A stretch of DNA of 64,000 bases from Thermoanaerobaculia bacterium. GTDB lineage: Bacteria; Acidobacteriota; Thermoanaerobaculia; Gp7-AA8. The DNA is taken from the NCBI GenBank assembly GCA_035630815.1, contig DASQJY010000028.1, positions 264,187 through 328,186 of the forward strand, written 5' to 3'. Positions 5,465 through 41,948 of this stretch are shown here, in pieces (within the stretch, counting starts at the first letter, position 1; each line of letters opens with the position of its first letter). A program made the translations under genes and the position numbers. Below the pieces are notes generated by a model. It was not told the origin of the DNA and did not search any database. It saw nothing but the letters and a program-made list of their open reading frames with translations.

Positions 5465-5841
5465 TAGTTGTCCAGGCGCATGATTTCATGCGCGACAATC
5501 CAGACCTCTTCTTCCGGGTGGTCGGCGTATTTCTCATAGAGCTTGCGGATCGTGGTGCGCAGCTTTTCCGCGACGGTACTGGCGTCGTCCCTTACGCTTT
5601 CGTCGACCAGCCAATCGATCATACAGACAACGATATGGTCAGGCACCCAGCTTCTCGGTTTTTTCTGCGAATACCAACCACCGCCGAAAGCAGTCGGCCA
5701 GACGCTGCTGTGCGTGAAACCACCGCAATGGCGGTTTACTGCCTTTTTTCTGAGATAGCCGAAGACCTTGTGGACGACAAACGCCTGCCGAGCGTTGTTG
5801 TTCGGCAGGTGACAGATGATGCGAATCCGGGTCTCAGCCAC
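5464..5841 (-). CDS. hypothetical protein (start assigned to the in-frame GTG at 5841)
   Basis: Its stop and the downstream PLP gene start share one base (5464). The GTG start lies 4 nt after the TAG of the upstream small ORF. No motif recognised. Confidence 0.45.
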   Translation of the reverse strand: MAETRIRIICHLPNNNARQAFVVHKVFGYLRKKAVNRHCGGFTHSSVWPTAFGGGWYSQKKPRSWVPDHIVVCMIDWLVDESVRDDASTVAEKLRTTIRKLYEKYADHPEEEVWIVAHEIMRLDN

Positions 5842-5845
5842 AGCT

Positions 5846-6133
5846 CTAATCCCCGACCGATGCAGGCCTCCGCCGCCGGGCGACAGGAGATTCCGCCTGC
5901 GCAATCACACTACCCTTTCGGCATCGGATTCCTTTCAGATGAGGCACCGCTTCGGCCGGCAGGATCATCGTCCGCTCCGCCGCGATGTCACGCGGTACTC
6001 CGAACAGAGGGTGACGCCGGTCCCACATCCGCTCGAGTGCCTGCATCAATTCCGCGTCGGACGGAAATGTGATGGCTCGGAGCTGGTCGTCGGGGTACTG
6101 ATAAAGAGTCATGTGCCACAAAAGTTCATTCAT
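5846..6133 (-). CDS. hypothetical small protein
   Basis: 95-aa ORF co-directional with and tightly spaced from its neighbours. Protein-like composition (MTLYQYPDDQLRAITFPSDAELMQALERMW...). No motif. Confidence 0.35.
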   Translation of the reverse strand: MNELLWHMTLYQYPDDQLRAITFPSDAELMQALERMWDRRHPLFGVPRDIAAERTMILPAEAVPHLKGIRCRKGSVIAQAESPVARRRRPASVGD

Positions 6134-6153
6134 ACGAATGCCCCCGCAAGCCT

Positions 6154-7269: not shown

Positions 7270-9241
7270 GGCCCGATATCTCTCGTTTTTCCATCTGTTC
7301 AGTTATTGCTGGAACAACGATGCCCATCCTCGCGTCAACGGCAGCCAGCAGCATCCCTTCAGAGAGATCTCCCGCCAGTTGCTTCGGCTTGAGATTCGCC
7401 AACACCAAGACCACCTGTCCGACCAAATGCTGAAACTCGTCGGGAGTTCCGAGGTGGGCAATAACGACCCGATCACCCTCCAGCCGCAGTCGCAGATAGC
7501 CAGGTTTGCCAGACGTCGGCGTCTCTACCGAAATGACTCGAAGAGCCCTGAATTCGCAGGCCCCAACGGAATCCATGGTCAATTCGATCGGGTCGGCCGT
7601 CCCCTTGAGTGTTTCCTTCGACGCCTCGACCAGCGCCTTTACTAGCTCGGGGTCGACGCGGTCGATCAGTCTCTCGTAAGGCTTGACCGGTCGCTCCTCG
7701 AGATCCTCGGCGATGCGATCCCAGCTGAGATTTGGGATGTCGAACATGCGCGCCACGGCGCGGCCCCACTCGGGAAGAATGGGCTGTAGGAGTGTCGCCA
7801 GGATGCGAAATGCATTCAGCGCTGCTGTGCACACGGCGGCGGCGGAGTCGGTATCGGTTTTCGCGAGCTGCCACGGCGCGCGGTCCTGCAGGTATGCGTT
7901 CACCTCGTCGGCGGACTCCGCGAGATGGCGTACGACCTGATTGAATTCGCGTTTTTCATACAGTCCGCTGACGGAGGTGCAGCGTTGGCGCACGCTCGTC
8001 ACCAGCGCCCGTCCATCAGCGTCGAGACGGCCTAGCCTTCCGCCGCAACTCTTGTGCAGAACGGCCAGCGTCCGGCTGGGGATGTTGGCCAGCTTTCCGA
8101 CCAAGTCGCTGTTGACCCGCTGGATGAAATCGTCGAAGTTCAGGTCGAGGTCTTCGACCTTTGCGTTCAGCTTGGTTGCGTAGTAGTAGCGCAGATACTG
8201 AGGATCGAGATGCTCAAGGTATGCGGACGCATTGATGAAGGTCCCGCGCGTCTTGGACATCTTCTCGCCGTCCACCGTGAGAAACCCATGCACTGCGAGT
8301 TCCGTCGGTGTACGGAAGCCCGAACCCATGAGTGTGGCTGGCCAGAAGAGAGCGTGAAAATAGGTGATGTCTTTCCCGATGATATGCACGACTTCCGCTT
8401 CATCGCTGCGCCGCCAGTACGACCCGAAGTCCACGTCGCGCGCCCGGCACCAGGCCAGCGTCGTGGCCATGTATCCGATGGGCGCATCGAGCCAGACATA
8501 GAAATACTTACCGGGATAATCCGGAATCTCGAACCCGAAGTAAGGGGCGTCACGGGAGATATCCCAGTCCTGAAGCCCGGATTCGAACCACTCCTGGAGC
8601 TTGTTCGCCACCTCCTCCTGCACATGGCCGGAAGTCAGCCAGGCGCGAAGCCGGTCGGTAAAGTCGCTGAGCCGAAAGAAGAGGTGCGTCGACTTGCGCC
8701 ACTCCGGGTTCGCATGACAGCGCGCGCAATAAGGGGCGATCAGGTCGCGAGGCGTGTACGTCTTCGAGCAGACTTCGCACGAATCGCCATATTGATCACC
8801 GGCGCCGCAGTTCGGGCATTTGCCGCGAATGTAGCGGTCGGGAAGGAACATCGCGTCGTTTGGGCAGTAGGCCTGCTCGATCTCGCCGGTGACGATGTGC
8901 CCATTCGCTTTTAGCGACCGGTACATCTCCTCCGACAACTCGCGGTTCTCGGGAGAGTGGGTGCTGTGATAGAGGTCGAATTCGACTCCGAAGCCGGCAA
9001 AATCACGCCGGTGCTCGTGCCAGACGCGGGCGATGAGCTCCTCCGGCGTGGTCGATTCCGTCCATGCCCGCAGCATGATCGGCGTTCCGTGCGTGTCGTC
9101 GGCGCAGAAGTAGACGACATCGCGGCCGCGCAATCTCCAGTAGCGGACCCAAATGTCGGCCTGGATATATTCGACGAGATGGCCGATATGAATCGGGCCG
9201 TTCGCATATGGGAGTGCGCAGGTTACCAGCAGCTTCTTCAT
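7262..9241 (-). CDS. metG: methionyl-tRNA synthetase with C-terminal tRNA-binding (EMAPII/Trbp111-like) domain
   Basis: ALPYANGPIHIGHL (HIGH motif), KMSKT, zinc knuckle CPNCG...CEVC. C-terminal LVLANLKPKQLAGDLSEGMLLAA OB-fold motif. Confidence 0.97.
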   Translation of the reverse strand: MKKLLVTCALPYANGPIHIGHLVEYIQADIWVRYWRLRGRDVVYFCADDTHGTPIMLRAWTESTTPEELIARVWHEHRRDFAGFGVEFDLYHSTHSPENRELSEEMYRSLKANGHIVTGEIEQAYCPNDAMFLPDRYIRGKCPNCGAGDQYGDSCEVCSKTYTPRDLIAPYCARCHANPEWRKSTHLFFRLSDFTDRLRAWLTSGHVQEEVANKLQEWFESGLQDWDISRDAPYFGFEIPDYPGKYFYVWLDAPIGYMATTLAWCRARDVDFGSYWRRSDEAEVVHIIGKDITYFHALFWPATLMGSGFRTPTELAVHGFLTVDGEKMSKTRGTFINASAYLEHLDPQYLRYYYATKLNAKVEDLDLNFDDFIQRVNSDLVGKLANIPSRTLAVLHKSCGGRLGRLDADGRALVTSVRQRCTSVSGLYEKREFNQVVRHLAESADEVNAYLQDRAPWQLAKTDTDSAAAVCTAALNAFRILATLLQPILPEWGRAVARMFDIPNLSWDRIAEDLEERPVKPYERLIDRVDPELVKALVEASKETLKGTADPIELTMDSVGACEFRALRVISVETPTSGKPGYLRLRLEGDRVVIAHLGTPDEFQHLVGQVVLVLANLKPKQLAGDLSEGMLLAAVDARMGIVVPAITEQMEKREISGRE

Positions 9242-11671: not shown

Positions 11672-12703
11672 ATGAACCCTCGCGGGACACTCTCCCCCGG
11701 CCAGAGCGCCACGGCGCAATTTCCGATCGTCGGCGAAAGGGAAGCGGCGCCATGGACAGGTGGCGAGTGGTCTCTGCGGGTCGATGGGTTAGTGGTGCGT
11801 CTACTGACTCTCGCGCTACCGGAGTTGCTGCGCCTGCCGCGGTCGGAACGGACATGGGACACGATCTGTGTCACCGGCTGGACTCATTTTGGTCATCACT
11901 GGGGCGGTGTGATGCTGTCCGACGTCCTTGCAGTCGCACAGCCGCTTCCGGACGCGCGCTTCGTGCGGTTCGTCGCTCACTCGCCTAGGAATCACGACAC
12001 GTCGCTGACACTCGAGTACGCGAGTGAGCACGTGATGCTTGCGTATGACCTCGATGGGCAGCCACTCCCAGTGGACCACGGCGGACCTCTCCGCTCCGTC
12101 TGCGAAGGGAAGTACTTCTACAAGAGCGTGAAGTGGCTGACGCGTATCGAGCTGCTGGCAGAGGATGAGCCGGGGTATTGGGAACGAGACTCGGCCTACC
12201 ACAACGAGGCGGATCCCTGGAAGGAGCAGCGGTACGATCCGAAGCCGCTTCCGGAGGCGGAATTCGCGCGTCGTGTTCGCGAGCGAGACTTCAGCGGCGC
12301 ATTCGCAATCGTGGACGAGAAGTTCAAGACGCTGACCGGCACCGACCTCTCGGATTGCAACTTCGAAGGAGCGCGCATCAAGGCATGCAGGTTCCTGCGT
12401 GTGACCTTGCGCCGAGCCCGAGCCACGGGCGGAAACTTCACCCGCTGCATCTTCATCGATTCAGATCTTCGAGACGCGGATCTCTCGCGATGTGATCTTG
12501 AGGGAGCTGATTTTCGAGGAGCGGATCTGCGCGGCGCCGATTTGCGAGAAACGTTTCTGACTGCCACGCAATTCGCGGACAGACATCGCGAGACCAAGAT
12601 TGAAGGCGCTCGCCTCCTCAGGTCAGATATCGACAAAGCAGGACTCGGAGATGACGATCGAGCGTTTCTGCTGAACGCAGCGAACGGCGCGATCTTCGAC
12701 TGA
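11672..12703 (+). CDS. molybdopterin-binding oxidoreductase domain (sulfite-oxidase/MsrP-like) fused to pentapeptide repeats
   Basis: ICVTGWTHFGHHWGGVMLSDVL and YDLDGQPLPVDHGGPLRSVCEGKYFYKSVKWLTRIELL (Oxidored_molyb pattern). C-terminal DLSRCDLEGADFRGADLRGADLRE pentapeptide repeats. Confidence 0.85.
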   Translation: MNPRGTLSPGQSATAQFPIVGEREAAPWTGGEWSLRVDGLVVRLLTLALPELLRLPRSERTWDTICVTGWTHFGHHWGGVMLSDVLAVAQPLPDARFVRFVAHSPRNHDTSLTLEYASEHVMLAYDLDGQPLPVDHGGPLRSVCEGKYFYKSVKWLTRIELLAEDEPGYWERDSAYHNEADPWKEQRYDPKPLPEAEFARRVRERDFSGAFAIVDEKFKTLTGTDLSDCNFEGARIKACRFLRVTLRRARATGGNFTRCIFIDSDLRDADLSRCDLEGADFRGADLRGADLRETFLTATQFADRHRETKIEGARLLRSDIDKAGLGDDDRAFLLNAANGAIFD

Positions 12704-12871: not shown

Positions 12872-13597
12872 TTACTGTTGCCCATCGGTGCGCGCGATTT
12901 CGCGTGAGCGCAGCGTCGCGCGGTAGCGGGCTTCGCGGCGCTTGTTCGTGATACGGAAGTAGATGAGCGTCGAGGAGATGTCGCGGTGGCCGAGCCAGTC
13001 CTGTACGTCCGCGACGTCCCATCCGGCATTCGCGAGATGGACTCCGATCGAGTGGCGGAGAACGTGGACATGACAACGATCAGGCGGCAATCCCGCGGTG
13101 ACTGCGTAGCCGTGAAAGAGTCGATTGATCTCTCCGCCTGACAGCGGTGCAGCCGTTCGTCGACGACCGCGAAAGAGGTACGTACTTTTGTCGCCGCATC
13201 GAAGTGCCAAATAGCGGCGCAGCAGCCGTGCACTTCGCGGGTGGAGCGGGTACGCGTTGGAAGCGCCATGTTTGATCCGGGCGATCCAGACCTTCCCGCC
13301 GCGCACGTCGTCGAGCGTGAGGAGAGCTGCCTCAGTTCGCCGTAAGCCGTGCCGGTAGATGAGGTCGAAGAGCAGAACGTCGCGGATGTTGCTCTCCGGG
13401 ATCGCGCGGAAGAACCGTTCGACCTCCTGCTTCGTGAGGTACTTGATCGCCTCCTGCTCGCGCCGCCGAACGGCCATTCCGTGACGTCTCGCACGGCCGG
13501 CGATTCTGACGCTTTTCCGGGAAGGCATGCGTTCGGGGGGAAGGCTGCGGAGGGAGGCACTTTCCAGTTTGCGGCTCCTCCAGAGACCTGTAAACAC
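12872..13597 (-). CDS. short tyrosine recombinase (phage-integrase catalytic domain, little or no N-terminal core-binding domain)
   Basis: GLRRTEAALL (Arg), KHGASN, HVLRHSIGVHLANAG (HxxR), WLGHRDISSTLIYFR (His/Tyr). Alternative start at the MAVRRRE methionine. Confidence 0.85.
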   Translation of the reverse strand: MFTGLWRSRKLESASLRSLPPERMPSRKSVRIAGRARRHGMAVRRREQEAIKYLTKQEVERFFRAIPESNIRDVLLFDLIYRHGLRRTEAALLTLDDVRGGKVWIARIKHGASNAYPLHPRSARLLRRYLALRCGDKSTYLFRGRRRTAAPLSGGEINRLFHGYAVTAGLPPDRCHVHVLRHSIGVHLANAGWDVADVQDWLGHRDISSTLIYFRITNKRREARYRATLRSREIARTDGQQ

Positions 13598-13635
13598 CGC
13601 CGCCGCGAACGCGAGCGTCAGCAGGTAGCCGAATC

Positions 13636-14325
13636 ATGCGACGACGAGGACGAGATTCGGTGCGGCGCGAAAAGACTCCTAAACGAGGCGTCACCGATCG
13701 CGCGCTCATCCGCGAGCTGTTCATTCAACGCGTGCCGCTCTACTCGTTCGCCGATGCGCTCCGGCTCACGCGAATGACGCAGGCGGAGATCGACGGAGCG
13801 CTCGCCGTCGGTGGCATCGCGACGGAGCGATACGGCGAGCGCGTGGTCATTCCGTGGGAGGACGTCGCGCGGCTCGCGCTCGACCATTGGACACCGCGCA
13901 TGATCAATGGCGCGCTCGGCTCCACCGACCGTCTCCCCGTCATTCCGCTCCTGAATCGCGTCCAGCAGATCGAGGTGTTCCTGCCGGTCTATCAGGTCCG
14001 GCTGCTCCACTACCTCGCCGAAGCCGAGCGGGGACAATTCCGCGCACGCCTGAACGCGAGCGATGTCCTCGAACGGCACCTCCTCGATCTCGCAAGCGCC
14101 GTCAACGCGGACGAGATCGAGATCGCCATACCGGGCTTCCGCATGGCGCTCCACTACCCCTACTTCATCTCGCGCGAGGACGACTGGTTTACCGCCTTCT
14201 GCTGGTACTGCGGCCGCGTGAGCGACGTGCCGGGCCGGCAGGTCTGCACGGATTGCCACGGCCGCCACGAGCCCCGGCCGCACCTCGGCGAAGACGGCAT
14301 CCCCGAACTGGATGAGGAGGAGTAA
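13636..14325 (+). CDS. hypothetical protein with excisionase/MerR-like HTH and C-terminal zinc ribbon
   Basis: LYSFADALRLTRMTQAEIDGALAVGGIATERYGERVVIPWEDVARL resembles HTH_17-type excisionase motifs. C-terminal CWYCG...CTDCHGRH. Divergent from the integrase. Preferred over the R/G-rich antisense ORF 13618-14904. Confidence 0.5.
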   Translation: MRRRGRDSVRREKTPKRGVTDRALIRELFIQRVPLYSFADALRLTRMTQAEIDGALAVGGIATERYGERVVIPWEDVARLALDHWTPRMINGALGSTDRLPVIPLLNRVQQIEVFLPVYQVRLLHYLAEAERGQFRARLNASDVLERHLLDLASAVNADEIEIAIPGFRMALHYPYFISREDDWFTAFCWYCGRVSDVPGRQVCTDCHGRHEPRPHLGEDGIPELDEEE

Positions 14326-14654
14326 TGCCGCGCGATCGGGACAAGCTCTACACAACAGGGCGCGGCGGGGTGACACCTCCCGAGTGGGATCAGGCGATGG
14401 ATCTCGTCTCGACGGGCGCGGTCCGCGACTTCCTCGAAGACCTGCTCGCGTATCTCGACGTGGGTCTGCCCGTCTCGCCGCTCGCGAACGACTGGATGCG
14501 CGAGCAAGCGGATCGCGCCGCGCAACTCGCAGAGCGGGGCATCGAGGAGATCGCACGCACGGCTGCTGCCCTCGAACGGATCGCCCGGCTCCTCGAACGC
14601 GCCGAGCAAGCCGCCCAAGAACGATCAACAGCAAAGGAGTCGCTGCATGAGTGA
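14325..14654 (+). CDS. hypothetical protein (helical/coiled-coil C-terminus)
   Basis: 109-aa ORF. Its ATG abuts the upstream stop and it overlaps the next gene by 8 nt. Confidence 0.4.
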   Translation: MPRDRDKLYTTGRGGVTPPEWDQAMDLVSTGAVRDFLEDLLAYLDVGLPVSPLANDWMREQADRAAQLAERGIEEIARTAAALERIARLLERAEQAAQERSTAKESLHE

Positions 14655-15090
14655 CGACCTTCAACTGACCCGCCGCGGGCTCTTCCACTTCATCACCACG
14701 TTCATCGCTACGGCCACGTTCGCGGCGCGTCGGCCACTGTTCACGGTGCCCCGCGAGAACGCTGTCGACGTCGAGATTATCGAGGACGAACCGCCTCCAC
14801 CGCGTCTCGGACGCTCGAAACTGACGAAGCTCGAAGTGTTCCTCAAGAGCCGCGGCATCAAGCCCGCGCACCTCGCGCGCGAGTCGGGCTACAGCCGGCA
14901 GCACCTCCTCCGTATCCGCACGGGGCGCATGGAGCCGACGCGTCGCTGCATGGTCGAAGTCGCGGCGGCGTGCGCGCGGCTCTCGCGTGAGCGCGTGACC
15001 GTCTCCGATCTTTTCGACCTCGTGCCAGTGTTGCGGCTCCTTCCGTCGCCACGAAGCAGTCGAGCGTTCATGGACGGAGGTGCGCGATGA
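14647..15090 (+). CDS. XRE-like HTH protein with Tat-signal-like/hydrophobic N-terminus
   Basis: KPAHLARESGYSRQHLLRIRTGRMEPTRRCMVEVAAA (HTH pattern). The N-terminus LTRRGLFHFITTFIATATFAA looks like a twin-arginine signal or membrane anchor. Confidence 0.55.
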   Translation: MSDDLQLTRRGLFHFITTFIATATFAARRPLFTVPRENAVDVEIIEDEPPPPRLGRSKLTKLEVFLKSRGIKPAHLARESGYSRQHLLRIRTGRMEPTRRCMVEVAAACARLSRERVTVSDLFDLVPVLRLLPSPRSSRAFMDGGAR

Positions 15091-15166
15091 CCCGCCGTCC
15101 GTCGCTCGGACTGCCGGAGCGGTTCAAGCGCGGCTGCGATCTCGCGGTTCCCCGGAGCGGGTGACA

Positions 15167-15583
15167 ATGCGAGATCCCGGTGACCTCCCGCTGGCGACCG
15201 TCGCGCTCACAGGTGTGCTCTCGCAGGGCGCCCCGATCGACGAGTCGAGCCTGCCGGAAGCGGCAGAAGTGCCCGCGGACCAGATCGACGCCCACGAGTA
15301 CGTCCTGCGCGTGAAGGGCACGAGCCTCCGTGCGTTCGGGATCGAGCCGGCCGACCTCCTCATCATCGAGCCGCGGCCGGAAGGCCGTGCGGCGACGGGC
15401 GAATTGGTGCTGGCGGAGCTCGGCGAGCGCGTCTTCCTCGGCCGCTGGTGGATGAAGCAGGGACGGCGCGTCCTCATGGACGCCGTCATCCAACCCATCA
15501 CCGAGAACGCCGATCTGCGCGTCATCGGCACCGTCACGGTGATCGTCCGGCATGAGACGCCGGGCGGGAGGAGACGGCAGTAG
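15167..15583 (+). CDS. S24 (LexA/UmuD/CI C-terminal)-like peptidase domain protein lacking a DNA-binding domain
   Basis: YVLRVKGTSLRAFGIEPADLLIIEPR...GELVLAEL...FLGRWWMKQG...RVIGTVTVIVR follows the S24 layout, with Ser in GTSL and Lys in MKQG. ATG at 15167 preceded by GGAGCGGG. Confidence 0.55.
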   Translation: MRDPGDLPLATVALTGVLSQGAPIDESSLPEAAEVPADQIDAHEYVLRVKGTSLRAFGIEPADLLIIEPRPEGRAATGELVLAELGERVFLGRWWMKQGRRVLMDAVIQPITENADLRVIGTVTVIVRHETPGGRRRQ

Positions 15584-15662
15584 ATCAAACCAAGGACCGC
15601 GCACGGCAGCGCCGCGCGCACGAAAGGCGCCTATGCGCGTCTGCAACCAGGAGGGAGATCAC

Positions 15663-16610
15663 ATGCTTGCGAGGAAGCCACGAAATCTCGATGACGGAGC
15701 ACGCTACGCCGTCCGATCCACACACAGCCGCATCGTGCCGCCGACATCGCGCACGTGGACGCTTGCGGTGCACGAAGCAGGGCACTGCATGATGGCGTAC
15801 CTCCTCGACCTCGGCATCAGCCGTGCCGTCATCCGGCCGGCGAACAGCACCGGGAACGTCTGGTGGCGTCACGCGGGACGACGCTATGAGCGCTTCCGCG
15901 ACGAGCCGTACAGCCGCGCGGTGATCGAAGCGGATGCGCTCGTGGCGCTCGCCGGCGCCGCGGCGCAGTGGCTCTACCGCGATGGTAGCGTGCGCGCCGT
16001 CGATCTCGGGCATGACGATCGCGTCGCAGCGTCCATCCTGCGCCAGCTCGAATCAGCGGATGTGGTGATCTCAAACTGGCGCGAGTACCTGCGCCAGCGT
16101 GCACTCCGCATGCTCTCGGAGCAGCGGCACCAAGCGCTCACGGCACGCCTTGCCGGTCTCTTCGTCGAGCGCGAGCGCCTGCGTGGAGAGGACATCTACA
16201 CCTTCCTCGAACACGAAGAGGCGCGCGTCGCTGAGTTCGTGCTGGACGGCACCGCCACGATCGAGGACTACGTGGGCCTCGTCGGCACCGACGCGTTTGC
16301 GCGACCGGTCGAGAGCCTGGGCCTTCCGAGTCGCGCGACGACGTGCCTGCGCGGTGCACGCATTACGACCATCGGCCAGCTCCTGCAGCACAGTTCCTAC
16401 GATCTCGCACCGGTCAAGGGACTCGGGAAGGACACGCTGCACAAGATCGAAGAAGCCGTCACCGCAGCAGGACTGGAACTCGCGAACTATCCGCGGAGCA
16501 ACTGCCGAGAGGTGTACTTCTCGGCCGCGAGTATCTACGCACGCGACGCCGAGTTCGCGCGAAGGAAACAGCGAAGCGTCGCCTCGGCACAGCAGGACGC
16601 GCTTGGGTGA
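15663..16610 (+). CDS. FtsH-type (M41-like) zinc-metalloprotease domain fused to an RNA-polymerase alpha C-terminal-domain-like HhH domain
   Basis: LAVHEAGHCMMAYLLDLGISRAVIRP...ALVALAGAAAQWLY aligns by eye to FtsH VAYHEAGHA...VTIIPRG...LYGGRLAEE. C-terminal PVESLGLPSRATTCLRGARITTIGQLLQ...VKGLGKDTLHKIEEAVTAAGLEL aligns to E. coli RpoA [28 protein letters not shown]...[21 protein letters not shown]. ATG preceded by GGAGGGAG. Confidence 0.7.
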   Translation: MLARKPRNLDDGARYAVRSTHSRIVPPTSRTWTLAVHEAGHCMMAYLLDLGISRAVIRPANSTGNVWWRHAGRRYERFRDEPYSRAVIEADALVALAGAAAQWLYRDGSVRAVDLGHDDRVAASILRQLESADVVISNWREYLRQRALRMLSEQRHQALTARLAGLFVERERLRGEDIYTFLEHEEARVAEFVLDGTATIEDYVGLVGTDAFARPVESLGLPSRATTCLRGARITTIGQLLQHSSYDLAPVKGLGKDTLHKIEEAVTAAGLELANYPRSNCREVYFSAASIYARDAEFARRKQRSVASAQQDALG

Positions 16611-16697
16611 CGGCGAGGCCAGCACGCGCCTTCGATCCCGACGATCCTCACTCGATGAGCGAGAGAGAACATAGAACCGAACGAAAGCCGAGGACCC

Positions 16698-16988
16698 ATG
16701 GCCAACCAGAACGCGATCATTACTGACACATGGTCGAATCCCGACTCGGAAGCGCTCTACCGGAATGAATGGCCGGACGAGCCGGCGATCCGAGCGCAGA
16801 AACTCGAAGGAGACCAGTGCGGCGGCTGCTCGTACTTCGCGCCCTTCAATCTCGATTTCGGATTATGCTGCCACCCAGCGTCGCGCCACTTCAGCGAAAC
16901 AGTGTTTGAGCACTTCACCTGCCCCGTCCTCCTCGCCGAAGGATGGGGTGCGCATAGCTTCGGCGCCATCGAGCTGGACGAGAAGTGA
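16698..16988 (+). CDS. Cys-rich small protein, DUF3027-like
   Basis: GDQCGGCSYFAPFNLDFGLCCHPASRHFSETVFEHFTCP matches my recollection of the DUF3027 pattern (CxxC...GxC...S...VFEHxxC). GAGGA lies upstream of the ATG. Confidence 0.55.
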   Translation: MANQNAIITDTWSNPDSEALYRNEWPDEPAIRAQKLEGDQCGGCSYFAPFNLDFGLCCHPASRHFSETVFEHFTCPVLLAEGWGAHSFGAIELDEK

Positions 16989-16998
16989 GGGCACCGGT

Positions 16999-17034
16999 TC
17001 GTGTTGAGACGACCGTCAACACGACTTGACGGTC
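16999..17034 (+). promoter_or_regulatory. two overlapping, mutually exclusive hairpins just downstream of the 16698-16988 gene
   Basis: tcgtgttga(16999-17007)/tcaacacga(17016-17024) and gaccgtcaa(17011-17019)/ttgacggtc(17026-17034), read directly from the sequence. No T-tract follows. Confidence 0.4.
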
Positions 17035-17580
17035 AGGGAGGCGTAACCCGCTCTACCACCGTGCGTTAGCTACCGCCGGATGGGGGGTATTAGGGACGAA
17101 AGTTCGGCCGAATGGACGAACTTCGTCCGAATGATTGCCGCCGCGTGAGAGGTGACGCTGACCGGGAAGCCGGCGAAGACTTCTCCAATCCACCCCGGAG
17201 GGCTCTCGATGGGTGCTCCTCCGGATGTGAAATGGAAGTACCTCGGCCACGGGCGTCCCTTCCCATCCCGCCTCTCCTCCGCGTCTCTGGCGTCCCTTGA
17301 CGACGCTCTCACGCGGTCGGTCACGACCTACTGAGACAGGCACCGTCGCGATCCGTCGGCACCTTGCGGCACCTCCTGGTGCCCGTGCCTCCCTCGGATC
17401 GCACCCGTGCGGACCTCTCCCGGATCTCCGTGCGCCGATCGCCTGAGGGCGTCGTCGAACGCCCTCCAGACGAAAGGAGGAGAACCTTGCGATTCACACC
17501 ACCACCCCGCTACCGCCGCTTGCCCCGCTGCCAGCTCACCCGCCACCGCACCCGCCGCGTGCGGAGAAAGGACACCCGCC

Positions 17581-17814
17581 ATGCGCCAGCTCGCACGTGA
17601 CCCGTTTGGCCGCACCACGCTCATGCGCGAAGTAGTCCGACCGCTCGCGCCGGGGCAGATTTGCTCGTGGTGCGGCAACGTGCGGATGTCGCGTCGATCC
17701 CGCACGCCCTTCCTGTATCGCTACGGCACAGAGCCGGACCCGGTACGCCCCCGGATGCAGTGGCACGACGGAGCGTTCTGCTCGAAATCCTGCCACGACA
17801 CCTACCACCACTAA
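17581..17814 (+). CDS. small Cys/His-rich hypothetical protein
   Basis: ATG at 17581 preceded by GGAGAAAGG. ICSWCGN...FCSKSCHDTYHH suggests a zinc-binding fold. Confidence 0.4.
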   Translation: MRQLARDPFGRTTLMREVVRPLAPGQICSWCGNVRMSRRSRTPFLYRYGTEPDPVRPRMQWHDGAFCSKSCHDTYHH

Positions 17815-17846
17815 CCCCACAACCGACAACCGAAAAGGAGATCGTC

Positions 17847-19496
17847 ATGGCCCAACCCGAGGCCGCACGCTGTCAGTCCGTCTCGCTCGCGCAGCTCCGC
17901 GAGTCGCCCTTCAACCCGCGCAAGCACTACGACGAAGGAGGGCTCAACGAGCTCGCGGCGAGCATCGCCGATCGCGGCATCTTGCAGCCGCTCCTCGTCC
18001 GTCGCATCGAGGACGAGAAAACGCCCTACGAGATCGTCGCCGGGCATCGCCGCTCCCGCGCCGCGAAGATCGCGAAGCTCACCACCATCCCCGTGATCGT
18101 TCACGAGTTCACCGATCGCGAAGTCCGGCAGGTGCAGCTCATCGAGAACGCGCAGCGCATCGATCTCTCTCCGCTTGAGGAGGCGGAGGCGTACGCCGCG
18201 CTGCGCGAGCTGGGGCTCTCCACCCGCGACGTCGCCGAGCAGGTGAAGAAGAAGCCCTCGCACGTCGCCGCGCGCCTGACCCTCACGACCCTCCCCGAGA
18301 AGGTGAAGAAGGAGCTGGCGGCCGGCGTCATCACCGCGGAGCACGCGGAGCTGATCGGGCTCATCCCGAACGCCGAGCTGCAAGAGCAGGCCCTCAAACG
18401 CATCATCGTGGAGCACCCGCTCGAACCGCATTTCTCGTCCAGGGTCGCGAGAGGGGCCGTCCCGATCGCGAAGGCGCGCCGCATCGTGGAAGCGGAGTTC
18501 ATGACCGTTCTCGAGAACGCGCCCTTCGACATCGCGGACCCGACGCTCTCGCCCCTCGGCGCGTGCGCCACGTGTCCCTTCCGCTCCGGCAACGATCGTG
18601 ACCTGTTCGGGAGCGTTTCGGGCAAGAACGTCTGCACGAACCTCGCGGATTACCGGCTCAAGATCGAGAACCACCTCAAGCGGCTCCGCGAGCAGGGCGC
18701 AACCGTCCTGCTCACACCGCGCGAGGTGAAAGAGGTCTTTCCGTTCGGCAACCCGCAGGTCGCGGACGGCTACGTGGATTTGGAGGCGAAGTGCGCCGAC
18801 GATCCGAAGAGCCGCACCTACGACCAGCTCCTCGCCGCGGAGCCGAAGCGCTCGACGGTGTTCGCGTTCGTGAACGGCCGCCTGCGCCGGGTCTTCCCGA
18901 AAGCGCAACTCGCGGCCGCCCTCGACACGTCCGGCCACGAGTTCCTGCGGCGCAAGGCCGAACGCCCGGCGGGTAACGACGCCGAGCGGGAAGCGCGTCA
19001 GCAGCAGAAGATCGACCGCGCCGTGCGGCAAGCGACCCTCGCCGCCTTCGCTGCGGCCATTCCGAAGGCGAAGCTCGGCCTCTCGGAGTGGATTGATCTT
19101 CTCGCCTCCATCGTCATCGAGGAGAAGGGCTGGCAGCTCGAAGACGTGCTCCCGCGGCACGGCTTCGGCGGCAAGCGTGACGCTCTCAAAGGCAAGTGCG
19201 AGGAGACGGGCAAGAAGCTCGTTGCGAAGATGAACGACGCGCAAAAGCGCGCCTTCGTCATCGACGCGCTCATGCACACCTGGGCCGGTCCGAACGCCGA
19301 CGCCGGCAAGCGGGCCGTCTTCGCCAAGGTGGTCGCGCAACTCGGCATCGACGCCAAGGCAATCGAGCGGAAGGTGCGCGCGAGCTTCGCTGCCAAGGCT
19401 GCGGGGAAACCCAAGGCGAAGGAAGCGAACGCCGCGCGTCCCGTGCGGAAGAAAGTCGTGCGTCCCGCGGCGAAAGTCGTACGGGCGCGCGCCTGA
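17847..19496 (+). CDS. ParB/Srx-like N-terminal nuclease/CTPase-fold domain protein with long C-terminal extension and Lys/Ala/Pro-rich tail
   Basis: LRESPFNPRK...LAASIADRGILQPLLVRR...YEIVAGHRRSRAAKIA...VQLIENAQRIDLSPLEEAEAY (ParBc motifs). ATG at 17847 preceded by AAAGGAG. Tail KAAGKPKAKEANAARPVRKKVVRPAAKVVRARA. Confidence 0.85.
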   Translation: MAQPEAARCQSVSLAQLRESPFNPRKHYDEGGLNELAASIADRGILQPLLVRRIEDEKTPYEIVAGHRRSRAAKIAKLTTIPVIVHEFTDREVRQVQLIENAQRIDLSPLEEAEAYAALRELGLSTRDVAEQVKKKPSHVAARLTLTTLPEKVKKELAAGVITAEHAELIGLIPNAELQEQALKRIIVEHPLEPHFSSRVARGAVPIAKARRIVEAEFMTVLENAPFDIADPTLSPLGACATCPFRSGNDRDLFGSVSGKNVCTNLADYRLKIENHLKRLREQGATVLLTPREVKEVFPFGNPQVADGYVDLEAKCADDPKSRTYDQLLAAEPKRSTVFAFVNGRLRRVFPKAQLAAALDTSGHEFLRRKAERPAGNDAEREARQQQKIDRAVRQATLAAFAAAIPKAKLGLSEWIDLLASIVIEEKGWQLEDVLPRHGFGGKRDALKGKCEETGKKLVAKMNDAQKRAFVIDALMHTWAGPNADAGKRAVFAKVVAQLGIDAKAIERKVRASFAAKAAGKPKAKEANAARPVRKKVVRPAAKVVRARA

Positions 19497-21890: not shown

Positions 21891-23465
21891 CTACCATGCC
21901 GTGCTATCCCCGAGCGGCGGCTCGGTGAGCTTGACGTCCCCTAGAAAGAATTTCGCAACATCAGTCCATAAACTCCACCACTCGTGAGACTGGCCACGAT
22001 CGGCAACGATCGCGGCCGGTTTCAGCACATCTACTTGCGGTTCCTGGCCCGCGGCTTCGATTTGGAACCCAAGTGCGCGGAGGAAGAAGCGCTTCTCCGC
22101 GACCGGCAGCGTCTCGAACAACGAATCCGCATCCACAAGCGACGCGAGGAACGTTCGCGCGTTTTGGAACTTTTCTGCGAGGTCGCCCTCCGCGTGCGCG
22201 GCGGTCAGCATCGCCTCGGCGCGGCGGCCGGCGAGCTCGCGGCGTTTGAAGTCGTAGTCATCCTGCGTGATCGTCGCGGCGAGGAGCAGATCGAGGAGCC
22301 GTGATTGCTGCGCGTCGAGCTGCTTAATCTCCGTCTCTGCGCGTGCCTTCTGTTGGGCAAGCTGCGTCTGCCCTCGTTGCTCGGCGTCCTGCAGGATGCG
22401 AAACGCCATCGCGTACTCTTCCTCCGTGATCGCGAGACGATGCAGCACCGCGGCAACATCGCGCAGGAGCGCCGTCTCGGAGAGCCGTGGCTGCGTACAG
22501 CGGCGGCGCATCTTGTTGCTGCACACGTAGTACGTGTACGGCTTGCCCGACTTCGACTTCGTGATCGTGCCGGTGAGCGTCCGCCCGCAACCACGACAGC
22601 GAACGAGCCCGCCGAGCGTGAACAGGTGCCGCTGCGGACGGTCCGTGCTCTTTCTGCGCTGGCCGAGCGCGCGCTGCACCCGCTCGAACAGTTCGTCGGA
22701 GACGAGCGGCTCGTGGGTGCCGGGATAGACCTCCCCCTTCACGACGAGGAGGCCACGGTAGAACGGGTTCGTGAGGATGTGGACGACGGTGGTGTGCGAA
22801 AGGCCGAGCTTCGTCGAGTTCACGCGGCGCTGCGGCTTCCGCACCTTCCACTCGTCGCGCGTGATGCGGGCGAGCGCGTCGATGCTGTACGCGCCCGTCG
22901 CGGCGAGGGCGAAGAGTTGCCGCACGTGAGGCGCCATCTCTTCATCAACAGCGATGACCGCGCGGTCGGCGCTCAGACGCACGTTCTTGTAGCCGAACGG
23001 CGCAGTCCACGCCCATTCGCCGCGCCGCAGCTTCTCCTCCATCCCGCGGCGGATGTTCTTCGAGAGATCCTTTGAATACTTGGCGGAGAAGCCAAGGAGG
23101 ATGCCGAGCATCAGCTCCGAATCGGCGTCGTCCGCGTACACGCCGTCCGAGGTGATGATCCGTTTGAGGCGCTTTGATTCGAGCGCGAAGAGAACGGCGC
23201 CGGCATCGGCGGCGTTTCGCGCGAGGCGGTCTGCTTTCCAGCAGATGATCGTGTCCACCTCCCCCTTCCCGACGGCCGCCATCATCCGCCCGAACTCCAC
23301 GCGTCCGGGCTTCTTCGCCGACTTCGCCTCCTTGAAGATCAGCGGCTCACGAATGCCGTTCTTCGCGCACGTCTCCACGGCCCAGTGAAGCTGGGCGTCG
23401 AGGCTCAGTGCTTGACGGTCGTCGGACTCGCTCGACTTGCGAGCGTAGATGGCGGTACGGGGCAT
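21891..23465 (-). CDS. large serine recombinase (resolvase domain + recombinase domain + zinc ribbon + coiled coil)
   Basis: N-terminus TAIYARKSSESDDRQALSLDAQ (catalytic Ser context), DTIICWKADRLARN. CRGCGRTLTG...YYVCSNK zinc-ribbon region. Long helical C-terminus. Confidence 0.92.
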   Translation of the reverse strand: MPRTAIYARKSSESDDRQALSLDAQLHWAVETCAKNGIREPLIFKEAKSAKKPGRVEFGRMMAAVGKGEVDTIICWKADRLARNAADAGAVLFALESKRLKRIITSDGVYADDADSELMLGILLGFSAKYSKDLSKNIRRGMEEKLRRGEWAWTAPFGYKNVRLSADRAVIAVDEEMAPHVRQLFALAATGAYSIDALARITRDEWKVRKPQRRVNSTKLGLSHTTVVHILTNPFYRGLLVVKGEVYPGTHEPLVSDELFERVQRALGQRRKSTDRPQRHLFTLGGLVRCRGCGRTLTGTITKSKSGKPYTYYVCSNKMRRRCTQPRLSETALLRDVAAVLHRLAITEEEYAMAFRILQDAEQRGQTQLAQQKARAETEIKQLDAQQSRLLDLLLAATITQDDYDFKRRELAGRRAEAMLTAAHAEGDLAEKFQNARTFLASLVDADSLFETLPVAEKRFFLRALGFQIEAAGQEPQVDVLKPAAIVADRGQSHEWWSLWTDVAKFFLGDVKLTEPPLGDSTAW

Positions 23466-23964: not shown

Positions 23965-25287
23965 GTGCGGCATCTTGGAGAACTCCTGTCCGACTTCGCC
24001 CGCGCGTTCTGCCATCGAAGCGTCGGATCGCGCACGGACAAATCCTCTCCAATCGACGCACGTCGTCTCCGTCAGGCGGAGGGCCGCGCCGTAGGCTTTG
24101 CAGTGCAGCACGCCGGTCGAATCGCTTCCTTCCTCCCACCCATGTCTCCTGATCCTCGCGAACGTGATCTTGGGGTCTCGCCCCCTCCCCCTGTCTTCGC
24201 CGCGCTGCCAGTGTCGAGCGAAGCACCGGCAGACAGTAATAGTCACGCCGAAGCGACGGGCGAAAGCGATGGTGCCAAGCGGTGGAAGACACCCGCGGGG
24301 GTGTCTCGCCGGGAAGACAGGCGGAAAGACACCCCTCCCTCTGGTGTCTTCGCTACCCCTTCCTCCAATGGGCTGTCTGTCTTCGACGGTCCCGAGGTGC
24401 CCCGTGACCGCGAAGCCATCCTCCACCTCGTGCGCATGCGGGCGCTCTCCTACGACCAGCTTGCGCGGCTCACGTATCACGGCGTGCATAAGACGGTCGC
24501 GCAACGTCGGATGCGCAAGCTCCGCGCATCGGGTTGGGTTCACGTGTGGGATAAGCCGGTGGCCGCCGGAAGTGGCCCCCGCTATGCCTATCCGACACAG
24601 CAGGCGTTTCGATGGGGTCACGAGCGGCTGCACGGCGTCCTCGAGACGCCGATCGGCCGTCTGGTCGAGCACATGTTGCCGAAAAACCCGCGGCAGCCGT
24701 GGGACTTCAAAACCGGGGTGACGCCCACGTTCCTCGCGCATACCGAGGAGGTCAATGACCTCGCGATCGCCTGGCGCCGCGCGCTCCCGGCCGAAGTCGT
24801 GTGGATGTCCACGTGGGATGTGCCGTTCCCGGAGCACATCGCATGGCGGCAGATGCCGCAGCCGGACTACGTGCTCGTGTTCCGACGTGACGGGCGGCTC
24901 CACGTCGTCTTCGGGGAGCACGACCGATCGACCGAGCCGGTGCACGAGCTCGCGCGGAAGCTCGGAGTGTACCGCGCGTGGTTCGAGACACCGGACGTGC
25001 TCGCGGAGACGCTCGGGTTCTCCACGTTCACGCTGCTCCTCACCGTCACAGGGGACGCGCCGATGCGTCGGCTCATCCGGCTCTCGGAAACCGCACGAGA
25101 TAGCGGCGCCGCGGCCTTTACGCGGCTCTCCCTTTTCCCGTGGGCCGTCGCGCAGCCGCACGGTGCAGCGTGGTTCCACCCCGACGAACCGCCCACGTCC
25201 ACACATCCTGACCTGAGCGGACATCCCGCCGCGCGTCGGCTCGCCCTTCCCGCCATCACATCCCTTCCCCCGCAGAACCATGCTTGA
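23965..25287 (+). CDS. Replication-relaxation (PF13814-like) winged-helix protein, copy A; true start uncertain (candidates ATG 24142, GTG 24397)
   Basis: PRDREAILHLVRMRALSYDQLARLTYHGVHKTVAQRRMRKLRASGWVHVW...YAYPTQQA parallels copy B (31669-32370) and the family pattern. The antisense ORF 23929-25281 is R/G/P-rich. Confidence 0.65.
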   Translation: MRHLGELLSDFARAFCHRSVGSRTDKSSPIDARRLRQAEGRAVGFAVQHAGRIASFLPPMSPDPRERDLGVSPPPPVFAALPVSSEAPADSNSHAEATGESDGAKRWKTPAGVSRREDRRKDTPPSGVFATPSSNGLSVFDGPEVPRDREAILHLVRMRALSYDQLARLTYHGVHKTVAQRRMRKLRASGWVHVWDKPVAAGSGPRYAYPTQQAFRWGHERLHGVLETPIGRLVEHMLPKNPRQPWDFKTGVTPTFLAHTEEVNDLAIAWRRALPAEVVWMSTWDVPFPEHIAWRQMPQPDYVLVFRRDGRLHVVFGEHDRSTEPVHELARKLGVYRAWFETPDVLAETLGFSTFTLLLTVTGDAPMRRLIRLSETARDSGAAAFTRLSLFPWAVAQPHGAAWFHPDEPPTSTHPDLSGHPAARRLALPAITSLPPQNHA

Positions 25288-26380: not shown

Positions 26381-27098
26381 TCCAACACGGCTCTTCTTCC
26401 TCGGGCCACGGAACGCGCCGGTCGAAGAACTCTCGATCGTGCCGGTGGACTTCGCGCACCTCTTCTCGCTCATTCCGCACGTCGGACGCAATGCCGCGGT
26501 CCTGTACGTCGCGATCCGGGCCATGCGGCAGCGCGCAGGCGTCACTTCGTTTGCGATCAATGACCTCGCATGGATGCTCCGCGCGCGTCCGATCCGGATT
26601 CGCCTGTGGATGCAACGGCTGGCGCGGGAAGGGCTGCTCGTCTACCACATGACGAACGGCAGCTTCTCGGACGTGCTCCTGCTGGAAGTCGCGGCACGTC
26701 CGGACGCCGGCCGCACGCACGACCTCCCGACGCACTGGGTGCCGCACGTGCTGCCGCGCCTCAATCGGACGCGGTTCCTCGTCTACTTGTGGGTGCGGAG
26801 CCATGAGTGGGGCGGCCACACGGCCGAGGTTCGGGAGGAGCGGCTCGCGCGCGAGCTCGCCCTGCATCCGGTCCGCGCGCGCTTTCACCTGTGGCGCCTG
26901 CGGCACGCCGGGCTCGTCGTCTGGAGCCGGAAGCGGCGCGAGTTCACCGTTCGCGATCCGGCGCCGCTCTCGATCCCGCAGCAGGCCGCACTCCGACTGC
27001 GGGAACTGCGCGTTATCCCGTGGGTCGCGTTTCAGGTCGTACTCGCGATCGCAATGGGCGTCGCGCTCACGCTCTTCATCCTTCACCTTCGCCAGTAA
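26364..27098 (+). CDS. double winged-helix protein with C-terminal TM anchor
   Basis: FAINDLAWMLRARPIRIRLWMQRLAREGLLVYH and LARELALHPVRARFHLWRLRHAGLVVW. C-terminal WVAFQVVLAIAMGVALTLFILHL. Confidence 0.5.
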   Translation: MLDAPDPTRLFFLGPRNAPVEELSIVPVDFAHLFSLIPHVGRNAAVLYVAIRAMRQRAGVTSFAINDLAWMLRARPIRIRLWMQRLAREGLLVYHMTNGSFSDVLLLEVAARPDAGRTHDLPTHWVPHVLPRLNRTRFLVYLWVRSHEWGGHTAEVREERLARELALHPVRARFHLWRLRHAGLVVWSRKRREFTVRDPAPLSIPQQAALRLRELRVIPWVAFQVVLAIAMGVALTLFILHLRQ

Positions 27099-28495
27099 TG
27101 ACCACCACAAAACGCATCCTTCGCTTCCGCTATGAGACCGCCGCCGCGCACGCCGCGAAGGCGTGGGAGCAGTTCTACCTCGATAACGACGGCTTCTATC
27201 ACGAGCAGCGCGAGCGCGCCGGTGCGGCGCGCGGTGCCGTCTTCGCGACGTACCGCCTCGCCAACAACCGGCAGATGCCGGTCTGGCTGACGCCGGAGGA
27301 TCTCGACCGCCATGCCATCGTTCTCGGCGCGACCGGCACCGGCAAGTCGTCGCTCCTCGAACGCATGGCGCGCCTCTGCTTCGACACGAAGCGCGGCATC
27401 GCGCTCCTCGACCCGCACGGCGATCTCTACGCGCGTACGGCAGCGTGGGCGAAGCATGCCGGCGTCAGTGACCTCACGCTCCTCGACTTCACCGAGCCCG
27501 ACCAGCTCCCCGGCTGGAACCCCTTGAAGCCCATCCCCAGCGTCGATCCCGGCCGCCAGGTCGATCTCCTCATCGGCATCTTTAAACGCCTCTACAGCGA
27601 CGAAGACGCGAAGAGCTGGAGCTATGGCGTGAAGGCCGAGGAGATCCTTCGCTACAGCCTCCGCGCCTGCATCGAGAGCGAAACGCCGGCGACGATCGAC
27701 ACCATGCGATCGTTCCTCCTCATCCCGGCGCTCCGCTCATCGCTCTTGCAGACGACTTCCGCGGAAGTGCGGTACTACTTCCACGAGCGCTTCTCGAAAC
27801 GCGAGGAGATGCACGTCGCAGCAGTGCTCAACAAGCTGGAGCCCTTCCTCGGCTCGATGGCGGTGCAGCGCTTCCTCGGCAAGCCCACGAGCACGGTCGA
27901 TCCACTCGCGATTATGGATCGTGGCGGCACGCTCCTCGTGAATCTCGCGAAGGGCTACCTCGGACCGACCGCCGACATCCTCGGCCGCCTCCTCCTCAAC
28001 GGACTGGAACTCGGCGCGCTTCGCCGCGAAGCGGTCGCGCCGGAGGAGCGTCTACCATACACACTCATCATCGACGAGGCACACACGTTCGCCGGCAGTG
28101 ACGGCGCGCTCGACGTACTCCTCACGGCCGCGCGGAAGTACCGAGTGTCGCTCGTCCTCGCGGCGCAAGCGCTCGCCCTCTTTCCAAGTCGGTTCGAGAC
28201 GCTCGCCCTCGGTAACGCCGGCCATCACTTCTTCTTCCGGCTCGCGCAGCAGGAAGCGCAGAAGGTCGCGCCCGGTCTCTTCGAGCCGCAGGGCAACGTG
28301 CCGCGGGTCGCCGTCCGTGCCTACGACAAGATCGCGGACCCATACCTCACACCGGCCGAGGAGATGCGGGAGCGGGCGCGCGAACTCGCCGATCTGCCGA
28401 TCGGCGCGTGCTACTGGGCGATCAAAGGAAAGGCGTACCGCGGGCGGCACATCCAAGTGCACTCGCCCGAAACGCTCACAACGCCGCTGGCATGA
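27098..28495 (+). CDS. HerA/FtsK-superfamily ATPase, type-IV-coupling-protein (TraD/VirD4)-like, copy A
   Basis: The ATG at 27098 overlaps the upstream TAA. HAIVLGATGTGKSSLLERM (Walker A), ALLDPHGDLY, YTLIIDEAHTFAG (Walker B), VSLVLAAQ. Confidence 0.85.
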   Translation: MTTTKRILRFRYETAAAHAAKAWEQFYLDNDGFYHEQRERAGAARGAVFATYRLANNRQMPVWLTPEDLDRHAIVLGATGTGKSSLLERMARLCFDTKRGIALLDPHGDLYARTAAWAKHAGVSDLTLLDFTEPDQLPGWNPLKPIPSVDPGRQVDLLIGIFKRLYSDEDAKSWSYGVKAEEILRYSLRACIESETPATIDTMRSFLLIPALRSSLLQTTSAEVRYYFHERFSKREEMHVAAVLNKLEPFLGSMAVQRFLGKPTSTVDPLAIMDRGGTLLVNLAKGYLGPTADILGRLLLNGLELGALRREAVAPEERLPYTLIIDEAHTFAGSDGALDVLLTAARKYRVSLVLAAQALALFPSRFETLALGNAGHHFFFRLAQQEAQKVAPGLFEPQGNVPRVAVRAYDKIADPYLTPAEEMRERARELADLPIGACYWAIKGKAYRGRHIQVHSPETLTTPLA

Positions 28496-41876: not shown

Positions 41877-41948
41877 TATTCATCGCGACGTTGAGGCAGC
41901 GAATCGCGACGGCGGCGAGGTGAACGGCGTCCCCCGATCCGCCATCCG

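Follow-up and report, generated by a model that had tools for sequence, protein, structure and literature searches.

A predicted M41-like metalloprotease domain joined to an RNA polymerase alpha-CTD-like domain in a mobile element of a Thermoanaerobaculia bacterium

M41 proteases such as FtsH are the textbook case in which an ATP-driven unfoldase works together with a protease. De-repression of a mobile element, on the other side, is brought about by the self-cleavage of LexA and CI or by the ImmA/IrrE-type M78 proteases. Here we describe a gene that bears on both subjects. It lies in a stretch of 64,000 nucleotides (nt) from a Thermoanaerobaculia bacterium (assembly GCA_035630815.1, contig DASQJY010000028.1, positions 264,187 to 328,186 of the forward strand; hereafter, the window), and its product joins an M41-like (FtsH-type) metalloprotease domain to a domain that resembles the C-terminal domain of the RNA polymerase alpha subunit (alpha-CTD). 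If this fusion protein processes the regulators of the element that carries it, it would represent a third independent solution for de-repression, and it would show the alpha-CTD in a second use, as a docking module away from RNA polymerase. The domain combination is real and, as far as we found, undescribed.

The fusion protein and its two domains

The gene and the parts of its product, all on the plus strand, are as follows (aa, amino acids).

15663..16610, plus strand: gene of the 315-aa M41-like/alpha-CTD fusion protein, stop codon included (open reading frame, translation, identical cluster P0001)
15649..15654, plus strand: Shine-Dalgarno sequence AGGAGG, separated by an 8-nt spacer from the ATG at 15663
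15744..16247, plus strand: M41-like (FtsH-type) metalloprotease domain, residues ~28–195 (Foldseek, the A2/A3 profile chain described below, secondary structure)
15771..15785, plus strand: HEAGH zinc-binding/catalytic motif, H37, E38 and H41 (alignment A1; aligned to the HEAGH of FtsH)
16014..16019, plus strand: D118-D119, of which D118 is the candidate third zinc ligand (pairs with the Asp of the FtsH 'ND')
16296..16484, plus strand: alpha-CTD-like helix-hairpin-helix domain, residues 212–274 (Pfam PF03118, PDB alignments, Foldseek, residue mapping)
16524..16604, plus strand: conserved C-terminal helix, residues 288–314 (AlphaFold secondary structure, predicted local distance difference test score [pLDDT] 74–92; kept in A1)

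The open frame extends from 15552 to 16610 (plus strand). Because AGGAGG precedes the ATG at 15663 and the homologues in alignment A1 begin at the same Met, this ATG is the right start, and the coordinates and length given by an earlier sequence-only reading of the window stand. That reading also described the protein as devoid of AAA+ and transmembrane parts, and this was borne out: there is no Walker A motif in the 315 residues and no match to the AAA families of Pfam, and no membrane segment was found, the maximum Kyte-Doolittle mean over 19 residues being 1.42. The fusion protein is thus predicted to be soluble, with neither an AAA+ unfoldase nor a membrane anchor. Its AlphaFold2 model has a pLDDT of 87.2 and a predicted template-modelling (TM) score (pTM) of 0.85, with a disordered N-terminus ahead of the M41-like domain. 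Since this pTM value means that the relative placement of the domains is confident, we infer from the model that the M41-like and alpha-CTD-like domains pack together and are not flexibly tethered.

The assignment of the N-terminal domain was a by-eye alignment with FtsH in the sequence-only reading. The Pfam M41 model (PF01434) does not match the protein itself at E ≤ 1, and the alignment therefore needed independent support; weak PF01434 matches occur in 6 of 27 family members, the best with E = 0.06. When the model was compared with the PDB using Foldseek, the top matches were the protease domains of FtsHi, FtsH and YME1 (E of 5e-5 to 3e-3 over about 200 columns), and the top match in BFVD was a 214-aa 'Peptidase M41 domain-containing protein' of an uncultured phage. 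In an exhaustive search of 1.84 billion cluster representatives, a profile built from just the N-domain (A2) matched 516 of them (50% identity) at E ≤ 1e-3. Most of these relatives are standalone 165–200-aa 'YHEAGHAV' proteins that are matched end to end; 2 of the 10 tested pass the Pfam M41 gathering score of 29.9 bits (P0043 with 39.1 and P0056 with 36.8), and for several the TIGR FtsH model gives a local match. The last link is a profile made jointly from the N-domain of the fusion protein and 64 A2 relatives (A3): it matched FtsH crystal structures at E = 2.7e-17, and nothing in the PDB other than FtsH, in an alignment that spans HEAGH, the following beta-hairpin, the LAG helix, the 'ND' Asp and the C-terminal helices. 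From the structure matches, the A2 relatives and the A3 profile, residues ~28–195 are predicted to be an FtsH-type metalloprotease domain, the sequence link being transitive: of the two Pfam families that the sequence-only reading had named, RNA_pol_A_CTD is matched directly, while Peptidase_M41 is reached via the relatives and A3. Two other family assignments were considered and rejected: the N-domain has no match to PF06114 (Peptidase_M78), and its weak M50 matches are local to HEXXH, the global evidence being all for M41.

The motif HEAGH is intact in the fusion protein and invariant across the window's clade (P0001–P0024, 55–100% identity). The sequence-only reading had doubted the activity of the domain, because the position corresponding to 'AEE' of FtsH reads AQW. 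This doubt goes back to an older proposal, in which E479 of 'AEE' is the third zinc ligand of FtsH. In the crystal structures, the third ligand is not E479 but the 'ND' Asp (D495 in E. coli). The residue that pairs with it, D118, is invariant in 27 of 27 family members, in a column near-invariant over 65 members of the superfamily, so the replacement of 'AEE' by AQW does not speak against activity. The predicted zinc site is therefore complete, with no unfoldase to feed it.

For the C-terminal part, the resemblance to the alpha-CTD was upheld in sequence and in fold. PF03118 (RNA_pol_A_CTD) covers residues 212–266 with a score of 43.1 bits, the gathering score being 23.8 (E = 3.6e-11), and matches 27 of 27 aligned family members. 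A phmmer search against PDB sequences gave E. coli alpha-CTD chains (E = 4e-6, residues 212–274, about 33% identity), and in Foldseek such chains superpose on the model with a target-normalised TM score of 0.8–0.9 and a root-mean-square deviation (rmsd) of 1.0–1.3 Å. The NCBIfam rpoA models align by their C-terminal 60–70 positions alone, far under the cut-off; the predicted protein has no alpha N-terminal dimerisation domain and is thus not an alpha subunit of RNA polymerase. The alpha-CTD-like stretch also matches BREX PglW.

When E. coli alpha numbering is used (residue number of the fusion protein plus 41), the equivalents of R265 (R224), C269 (C228), G296 (G255) and K297 are retained, and S299 is represented by Thr (T258). 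Within the 265 determinant, N268 is changed to Thr and K298 to Asp. Among representatives of the fused lineages, the R265 equivalent is found in 17 of 21, that of G296 in 16 of 21, and Thr or Ser for S299 in 11 of 21. As for the surfaces that dock proteins, the equivalent of E261 in the 261 determinant, which contacts sigma region 4, is Gly here and one of G, S or P over the family as a whole, with D259 variable; the 287 determinant (T285–E288), which contacts CAP, reads S-S-Y-D here and is variable across the family. Because the R265 and G296 positions are largely kept, unlike the 261 and 287 determinants, which show no conservation, DNA binding appears to be the only known alpha-CTD function that has left a trace.

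Distribution of the fusion and state of the HExxH motif

A word-indexed search gave 31 close clusters, all metagenomic and all nameless except one labelled 'RNA polymerase alpha subunit'. Ten more distant members, obtained by exact look-up, are listed as 'hypothetical protein', with one cluster member labelled RNA polymerase alpha subunit. Among the GTDB species-representative genomes, at least one locus was found, in a metagenome-assembled genome of Thermoanaerobaculia, and homologues of the neighbour genes are also labelled Thermoanaerobaculia or Acidobacteriota. All fusion members come from uncultured Acidobacteriota-type metagenomes. The architecture is recurrent, being found in about 16 divergent lineages, all of them metagenomic and without a name. 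Outside the window's clade, the alpha-CTD is also attached to divergent M41-like proteins that have the canonical HEAGH (P0042, P0044, P0063, P0076, P0144 and the second paralogue of locus L009).

The sequence-only reading knew of no described example, and we found none. The fusion is absent from Pfam, NCBIfam, PHROGs, the PADLOC names, phage and plasmid records and IMG/VR, all incomplete resources in which absence is not proof. PADLOC gave no match for the protein or for six neighbours, PHROGs nothing significant for the protein, and IMG/VR no relative of the fusion; a tblastn search of phage and plasmid collections returned rpoA alpha-CTD matches only. In PHROGs, the standalone relatives have matches to phrog_30773 only, which is FtsH-sized and has no assigned function. 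The literature searched contains neither an M41-like/alpha-CTD fusion nor an ATPase-less M41 regulator, its mentions of 'FtsH' being to AAA+ FtsH systems or to YccA.

In the fused branch, the HExxH motif has often been lost:

P0025, P0026: HQAGH, HHAGH
P0027–32: HLAGQ, HVAGQ (for L002, confirmed upstream of the called start)
P0035–37: YAAGQ, HVAGN, RTAGQ
P0039, P0040: HAAGH, HFAGH
P0077, P0088: HMAAH, HDAAH

M41-like genes also occur in tandem. In L004, a dead M41-like copy with LYHLAGH (5387–6004) is followed by an active fused copy with HEAGH (6001–6876); in L012, where both copies are unfused, a dead HVAAH copy (6195–6920) is followed by an active HEAGH copy (6920–7555); and in L009 there are two fused paralogues (5001–5945 and 6010–6894), both with an intact HExxH. 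By analogy with FtsH and FtsHi, such pairs suggest hetero-oligomers.

Each half of the fusion is also met alone. In L011 (3052–5402), a ParA-like gene and a RepA_C replication gene flank a standalone M41-like gene of 169 aa, a plasmid-type context, which ties the ATPase-less M41-like superfamily broadly to mobile elements. BFVD holds many 105–140-aa proteins of uncultured Caudovirales, and some of actinophages (Finch, Mithril), that consist essentially of the alpha-CTD-like domain; uncharacterised standalone proteins of this kind seem to be common in phages. The A2 relatives thus make up a sizeable unannotated superfamily without ATPase on mobile elements, and the alpha-CTD fusion offers an experimental handle on one of its branches. 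The repeated loss of the motif in the fused branch, together with the pairs of dead and active genes, also provides a compact bacterial system for studying pseudoprotease evolution.

Genomic setting and recurrent partner genes

The genes that define the surroundings of the fusion gene in the window are as follows.

12872..13597, minus strand: short tyrosine recombinase (integrase; Pfam Phage_integrase 2.6e-32; 73% identical to the 202-aa integrase of L005)
13636..14325, plus strand: X, 229 aa, with an Xis/MerR-like winged helix-turn-helix (HTH) N-domain, a helical middle and a Cys-rich C-terminus (synteny, AlphaFold, Foldseek)
14325..14654, plus strand: 109-aa open reading frame (ORF), conserved solely in the closest element, L001 (ORF list, synteny)
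14647..15090, plus strand: XRE-type HTH protein of 147 aa, from the 'HTH147' family, which recurs as a partner of the fusion (Pfam HTH_26; BLAST and hidden Markov model [HMM] synteny)
15167..15583, plus strand: LexA/UmuD-like S24-fold protein, 138 aa, whose ORF opens at 15080 (Pfam S24; aligned to LexA catalytic domains)
17847..19496, plus strand: ParB-like protein of the same element (Pfam ParB_N, HTH_ParB)
21891..23465, minus strand: large serine recombinase (Pfam Resolvase, Recombinase, Zn_ribbon_recom)
23965..25287, plus strand: replication-relaxation family protein, relaxase-type (Pfam Replic_Relax 1.7e-14)
26807..28495, plus strand: FtsK/HerA or type IV coupling-protein-like ATPase (Pfam DUF87, T4SS-DNA_transf)

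The order is therefore a divergent integrase, X, the 109-aa ORF, the XRE HTH gene, the S24-fold gene and the fusion gene, the last of the co-directional set. The true start of the integrase is probably about 40 codons inside its ORF. Based on the presence of the integrase, ParB-like, serine recombinase, Replic_Relax and FtsK/coupling-protein-like genes, the fusion gene is placed at the integrase end of a predicted integrative, mobilisable or conjugative-type element. The regulatory mobile-element setting proposed by the sequence-only reading is thereby supported, in the form of an integrase-side operon with HTH, S24-fold and Xis/MerR-like genes.

Synteny was assessed by HMM scans for five families over 21 fetched loci and by BLAST all-against-all. 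Of the 14 fused loci that have enough flank, 13 (all but L018) carry gene X upstream of the fusion gene and in its orientation. A gene of the HTH147 family adjoins the fusion gene or shares its operon in 8 of 16 fused loci, with L005 and L006 counted as one: the window, L001, L003, L004, L005, L009, L014 and L015. An S24-like family member is present in 7 fused loci. The order is HTH-S24-fusion in the window, L001, L014 and L015, S24-fusion-HTH in L003, and HTH-fusion in L005, L004 and L009, and in L010 the fusion is followed by a full-length S24 repressor. The association with HTH and S24 genes thus outlasts changes in gene order, which argues for a functional link. The integrase-X-HTH backbone is also found in L001, L005, L012 and L013. 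The cargo in L013 is an operon of the CBASS type (cyclic-oligonucleotide-based anti-phage signalling system; bacHORMA, AAA/Trip13-like and Cap17-like genes) with its own pair of HTH and Peptidase_M78 genes, so this backbone shuttles defence cargo. Some fused loci (L002, L004, L007) have no integrase and lie beside sigma-like and TPR genes. In L002, L004, L007 and L009, a sigma-70-like gene and a TPR gene of about 450 aa, homologous between loci, adjoin the X-fusion block upstream; the TPR gene in L002 is a fusion with a CHAT protease, and a part near the N-terminus of the sigma-like protein in L007 (locus positions 750–1004) resembles the HTH147 family.

Of the partner proteins, X has an N-domain modelled by AlphaFold with a pLDDT of about 90. 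Its best Foldseek matches were the Xis of the mycobacteriophage Pukovnik, the excisionase RdfS, GlnR and BldC (probability 0.9–0.99, target TM score 0.5–0.7), with E of 0.1–0.8, which is not significant, and a sequence-profile search against the PDB gave nothing. The N-domain is thus only tentatively modelled as a winged helix of the excisionase/MerR type. A membrane or Tat-type N-terminus on the HTH147 protein was considered and ruled out by hydropathy. The short members of the S24-fold family are those of the window (15167–15583), L001 (7504–7920), L003 (9573–9965) and L007 (3986–4423). In all four, the position of LexA Lys156 is occupied by Gly; the equivalent of Ser119 is present in the window and L001 and lost in L003 and L007. 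Where LexA has its scissile bond, Ala84-Gly85, the family alignment shows a conserved 'SQG'. Without the catalytic Lys, the LexA Ser-Lys mechanism is impossible, yet the cleavage-site region is kept; from its sequence, the S24-fold protein appears to be a self-cleavage domain that is no longer able to cleave itself.

The search for the element ends was negative in the window: no piece of the tRNA-Gly gene (38146–38221) is repeated elsewhere at ≥ 12 nt, and a direct-repeat search over the whole window gave no credible att pair. A search from 13300 to 17900 gave no sigma-70-like promoter, and terminator-like sites did not exceed the number expected from shuffled sequence. The sole Rfam match is the tRNA. 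Downstream of the fusion gene, between a 96-aa and a 135-aa ORF, about 420 bp (16988–17407) contain no convincing ORF and have several short inverted repeats with no Rfam match; this gap could hold an origin or a regulatory site. Just outside the integrase end, a gene at 11672–12703 (plus strand) combines a molybdopterin-oxidoreductase domain with pentapeptide repeats, an unusual fusion. Far from the fusion gene, at 41715–41882, there are 3–4 tandem copies of a 42-nt unit with about 70–76% identity.

Possible functions and comparison with known systems

We tentatively propose, at somewhat less than an even chance, that the fusion protein processes regulators as a protease or acts as an anti-repressor, in analogy to ImmA/IrrE, and that it is docked by its alpha-CTD-like domain. 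More generally, it is probably part of the on/off switch of the element. The alpha-CTD-like domain, in which the equivalents of R265 and G296 are retained, would dock the protein on DNA or on a DNA-bound partner. Because there is no unfoldase, the M41-like site would cut only an exposed linker or tail. Candidate substrates are the XRE HTH protein, the S24-fold protein, in which 'SQG' is kept, and protein X. Cleavage, or mere binding, would then switch the element between an integrated, silent state and excision or transfer. In lineages without the catalytic Glu or His, the fusion would presumably do no more than bind, or would be paired, itself inactive, with an active paralogue. An ImmA/IrrE-like role had been suggested by the sequence-only reading, and the recurrence of HTH147 and X at the fused loci lends it circumstantial support. 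A more specific form of the proposal, which we consider quite unlikely, is that a DNA-docked, ATP-independent FtsH-type protease cleaves the S24-fold protein in trans and so replaces RecA-dependent self-cleavage of the LexA type as the induction switch of acidobacterial integrative elements, the dead copies elsewhere being decoys or hetero-oligomer partners.

Several observations weigh against a regulator-processing protease. FtsH-type protease domains normally need an unfoldase to receive their substrate. HExxH is missing in 9 of 16 fused but in only 6 of 131 unfused representatives at 50% identity (Fisher p = 6e-7, uncorrected for shared ancestry), and among the six unfused cases there are two truncated copies that belong to fused lineages; proteolysis is therefore not a universal function of the fusion, and catalysis is dispensable for the architecture overall. 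The most strongly conserved motifs of the family in alignment A1 (EADALVALAG, WREYLRQRA and ARLAG) are all non-catalytic. The equivalent of K298, a DNA-binding determinant, is Asp in the window's clade, and the intergenic regions contain no operator-like repeats, those found looking like chance. Finally, L013 (4246–10690) carries the same backbone without any M41-like gene; since X, the HTH gene and the integrase thus occur without it, the fusion is accessory to the module and not its core.

Part of this evidence is what a non-catalytic regulator would predict. In such a protein, the M41-like domain would be a scaffold for oligomerisation or binding and the alpha-CTD-like domain would bind DNA, so that the whole serves as a transcription or excision cofactor or as a sequestering anti-repressor, with HEAGH kept for zinc-dependent folding. 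We regard this as unlikely on balance, albeit the least unlikely of the rivals. Apart from the frequency of HExxH loss and the non-catalytic nature of the best conserved motifs, both His residues are still present in several degenerate copies (HQAGH, HAAGH, HFAGH), which could thus bind zinc without being catalytic. FtsH protease domains assemble into rings, and the pairs of dead and active copies in L004 and L012 recall the FtsH/FtsHi hetero-assemblies, whose members are also among the top Foldseek matches. On the other hand, neither HEAGH nor D118 varies within the window's clade, down to 55% identity, and 125 of 131 standalone relatives keep HExxH, from which it follows that the ancestral domain was an enzyme. 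The HExxH losses and the tandem pairs thus argue for a scaffold in the family as a whole, whereas the conservation of HEAGH and D118 argues against it for the gene in the window.

Two further explanations put the weight on other targets. The protein could be a decoy that mimics the host alpha-CTD and captures activators or sigma region 4, which the protease domain then destroys, rewiring the transcription of the host or the element; a related idea, that it targets activators docking on the alpha-CTD, was part of the sequence-only reading. Sequence and fold do mark the domain as a genuine homologue of the alpha-CTD, and the small standalone alpha-CTD-like proteins of uncultured phages show that mobile elements do deploy it. 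However, the protein-docking surfaces (the 261 and 287 determinants) are not kept, which counts against both versions; moreover, an identity of about 33% to alpha-CTDs means that there was no recent capture from a host rpoA, and the conserved partners are encoded by the element. We consider a decoy improbable. Less probable still is a DNA-dependent protease that clears covalently or tightly bound proteins, such as recombinase or relaxase adducts, from DNA, as an analogue of SprT, Wss1 and Spartan. The union of a metalloprotease with a helix-hairpin-helix DNA-binding domain would suit this role, and two recombinases and a relaxase-type protein are among the products of the element; but the conserved neighbours are small regulators, and neither the relaxase nor the recombinases are among them, several fused loci (L004, L007, L002) have no integrase or relaxase nearby, only sigma-like and TPR genes, and the catalytic motif is often lost.

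The proposal of a regulator-processing protease can finally be set against the systems to which it appeals. The protease domain of FtsH, YME1 and AFG3L2 (MEROPS M41, PF01434) provides the best structural matches and shares with the fusion protein HEAGH, the hairpin, the LAG helix, the third-ligand Asp and the C-terminal helices; the fusion protein differs in that it has no AAA+ part and no anchor, its M41-like part has about 170 residues and scores below the Pfam threshold, its gene belongs to a mobile element, and it is joined to a domain of the DNA-binding type. The C-terminal domain of the RNA polymerase alpha subunit (PF03118) shares with it the Pfam match, the fold and the equivalents of R265, C269, G296 and K297; unlike the alpha subunit, the fusion protein has no N-terminal domain, does not conserve the 261 and 287 determinants and, judging by the model (pTM 0.85), probably has its alpha-CTD-like domain packed on the protease.

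ImmA, IrrE and CapP (M78, COG2856), with their XRE partners ImmR, DdrO and CapH, resemble the present case as small soluble HEXXH metalloproteases encoded beside an XRE HTH gene, in a mobile-element module near an integrase. The fusion protein belongs to another protease family, has the additional alpha-CTD-like domain, is accompanied by S24-fold and Xis-like partners and has frequently lost its catalytic motif; it would therefore be an analogue of these proteins and not a homologue. The FtsHi pseudoproteases of the chloroplast Ycf2-FtsHi motor are similar in being M41 folds without catalytic residues that assemble with active paralogues, but they keep AAA+, are membrane-bound and belong to a eukaryotic organelle, so that a hetero-oligomer among relatives of the fusion protein would be a conjecture by analogy. 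The standalone halves in mobile elements, namely the 214-aa M41 protein, the 110–140-aa 'RNA polymerase alpha subunit C-terminal' proteins of uncultured Caudovirales and the 169-aa gene of L011, are uncharacterised, and none of them joins both domains, as the fusion protein does.

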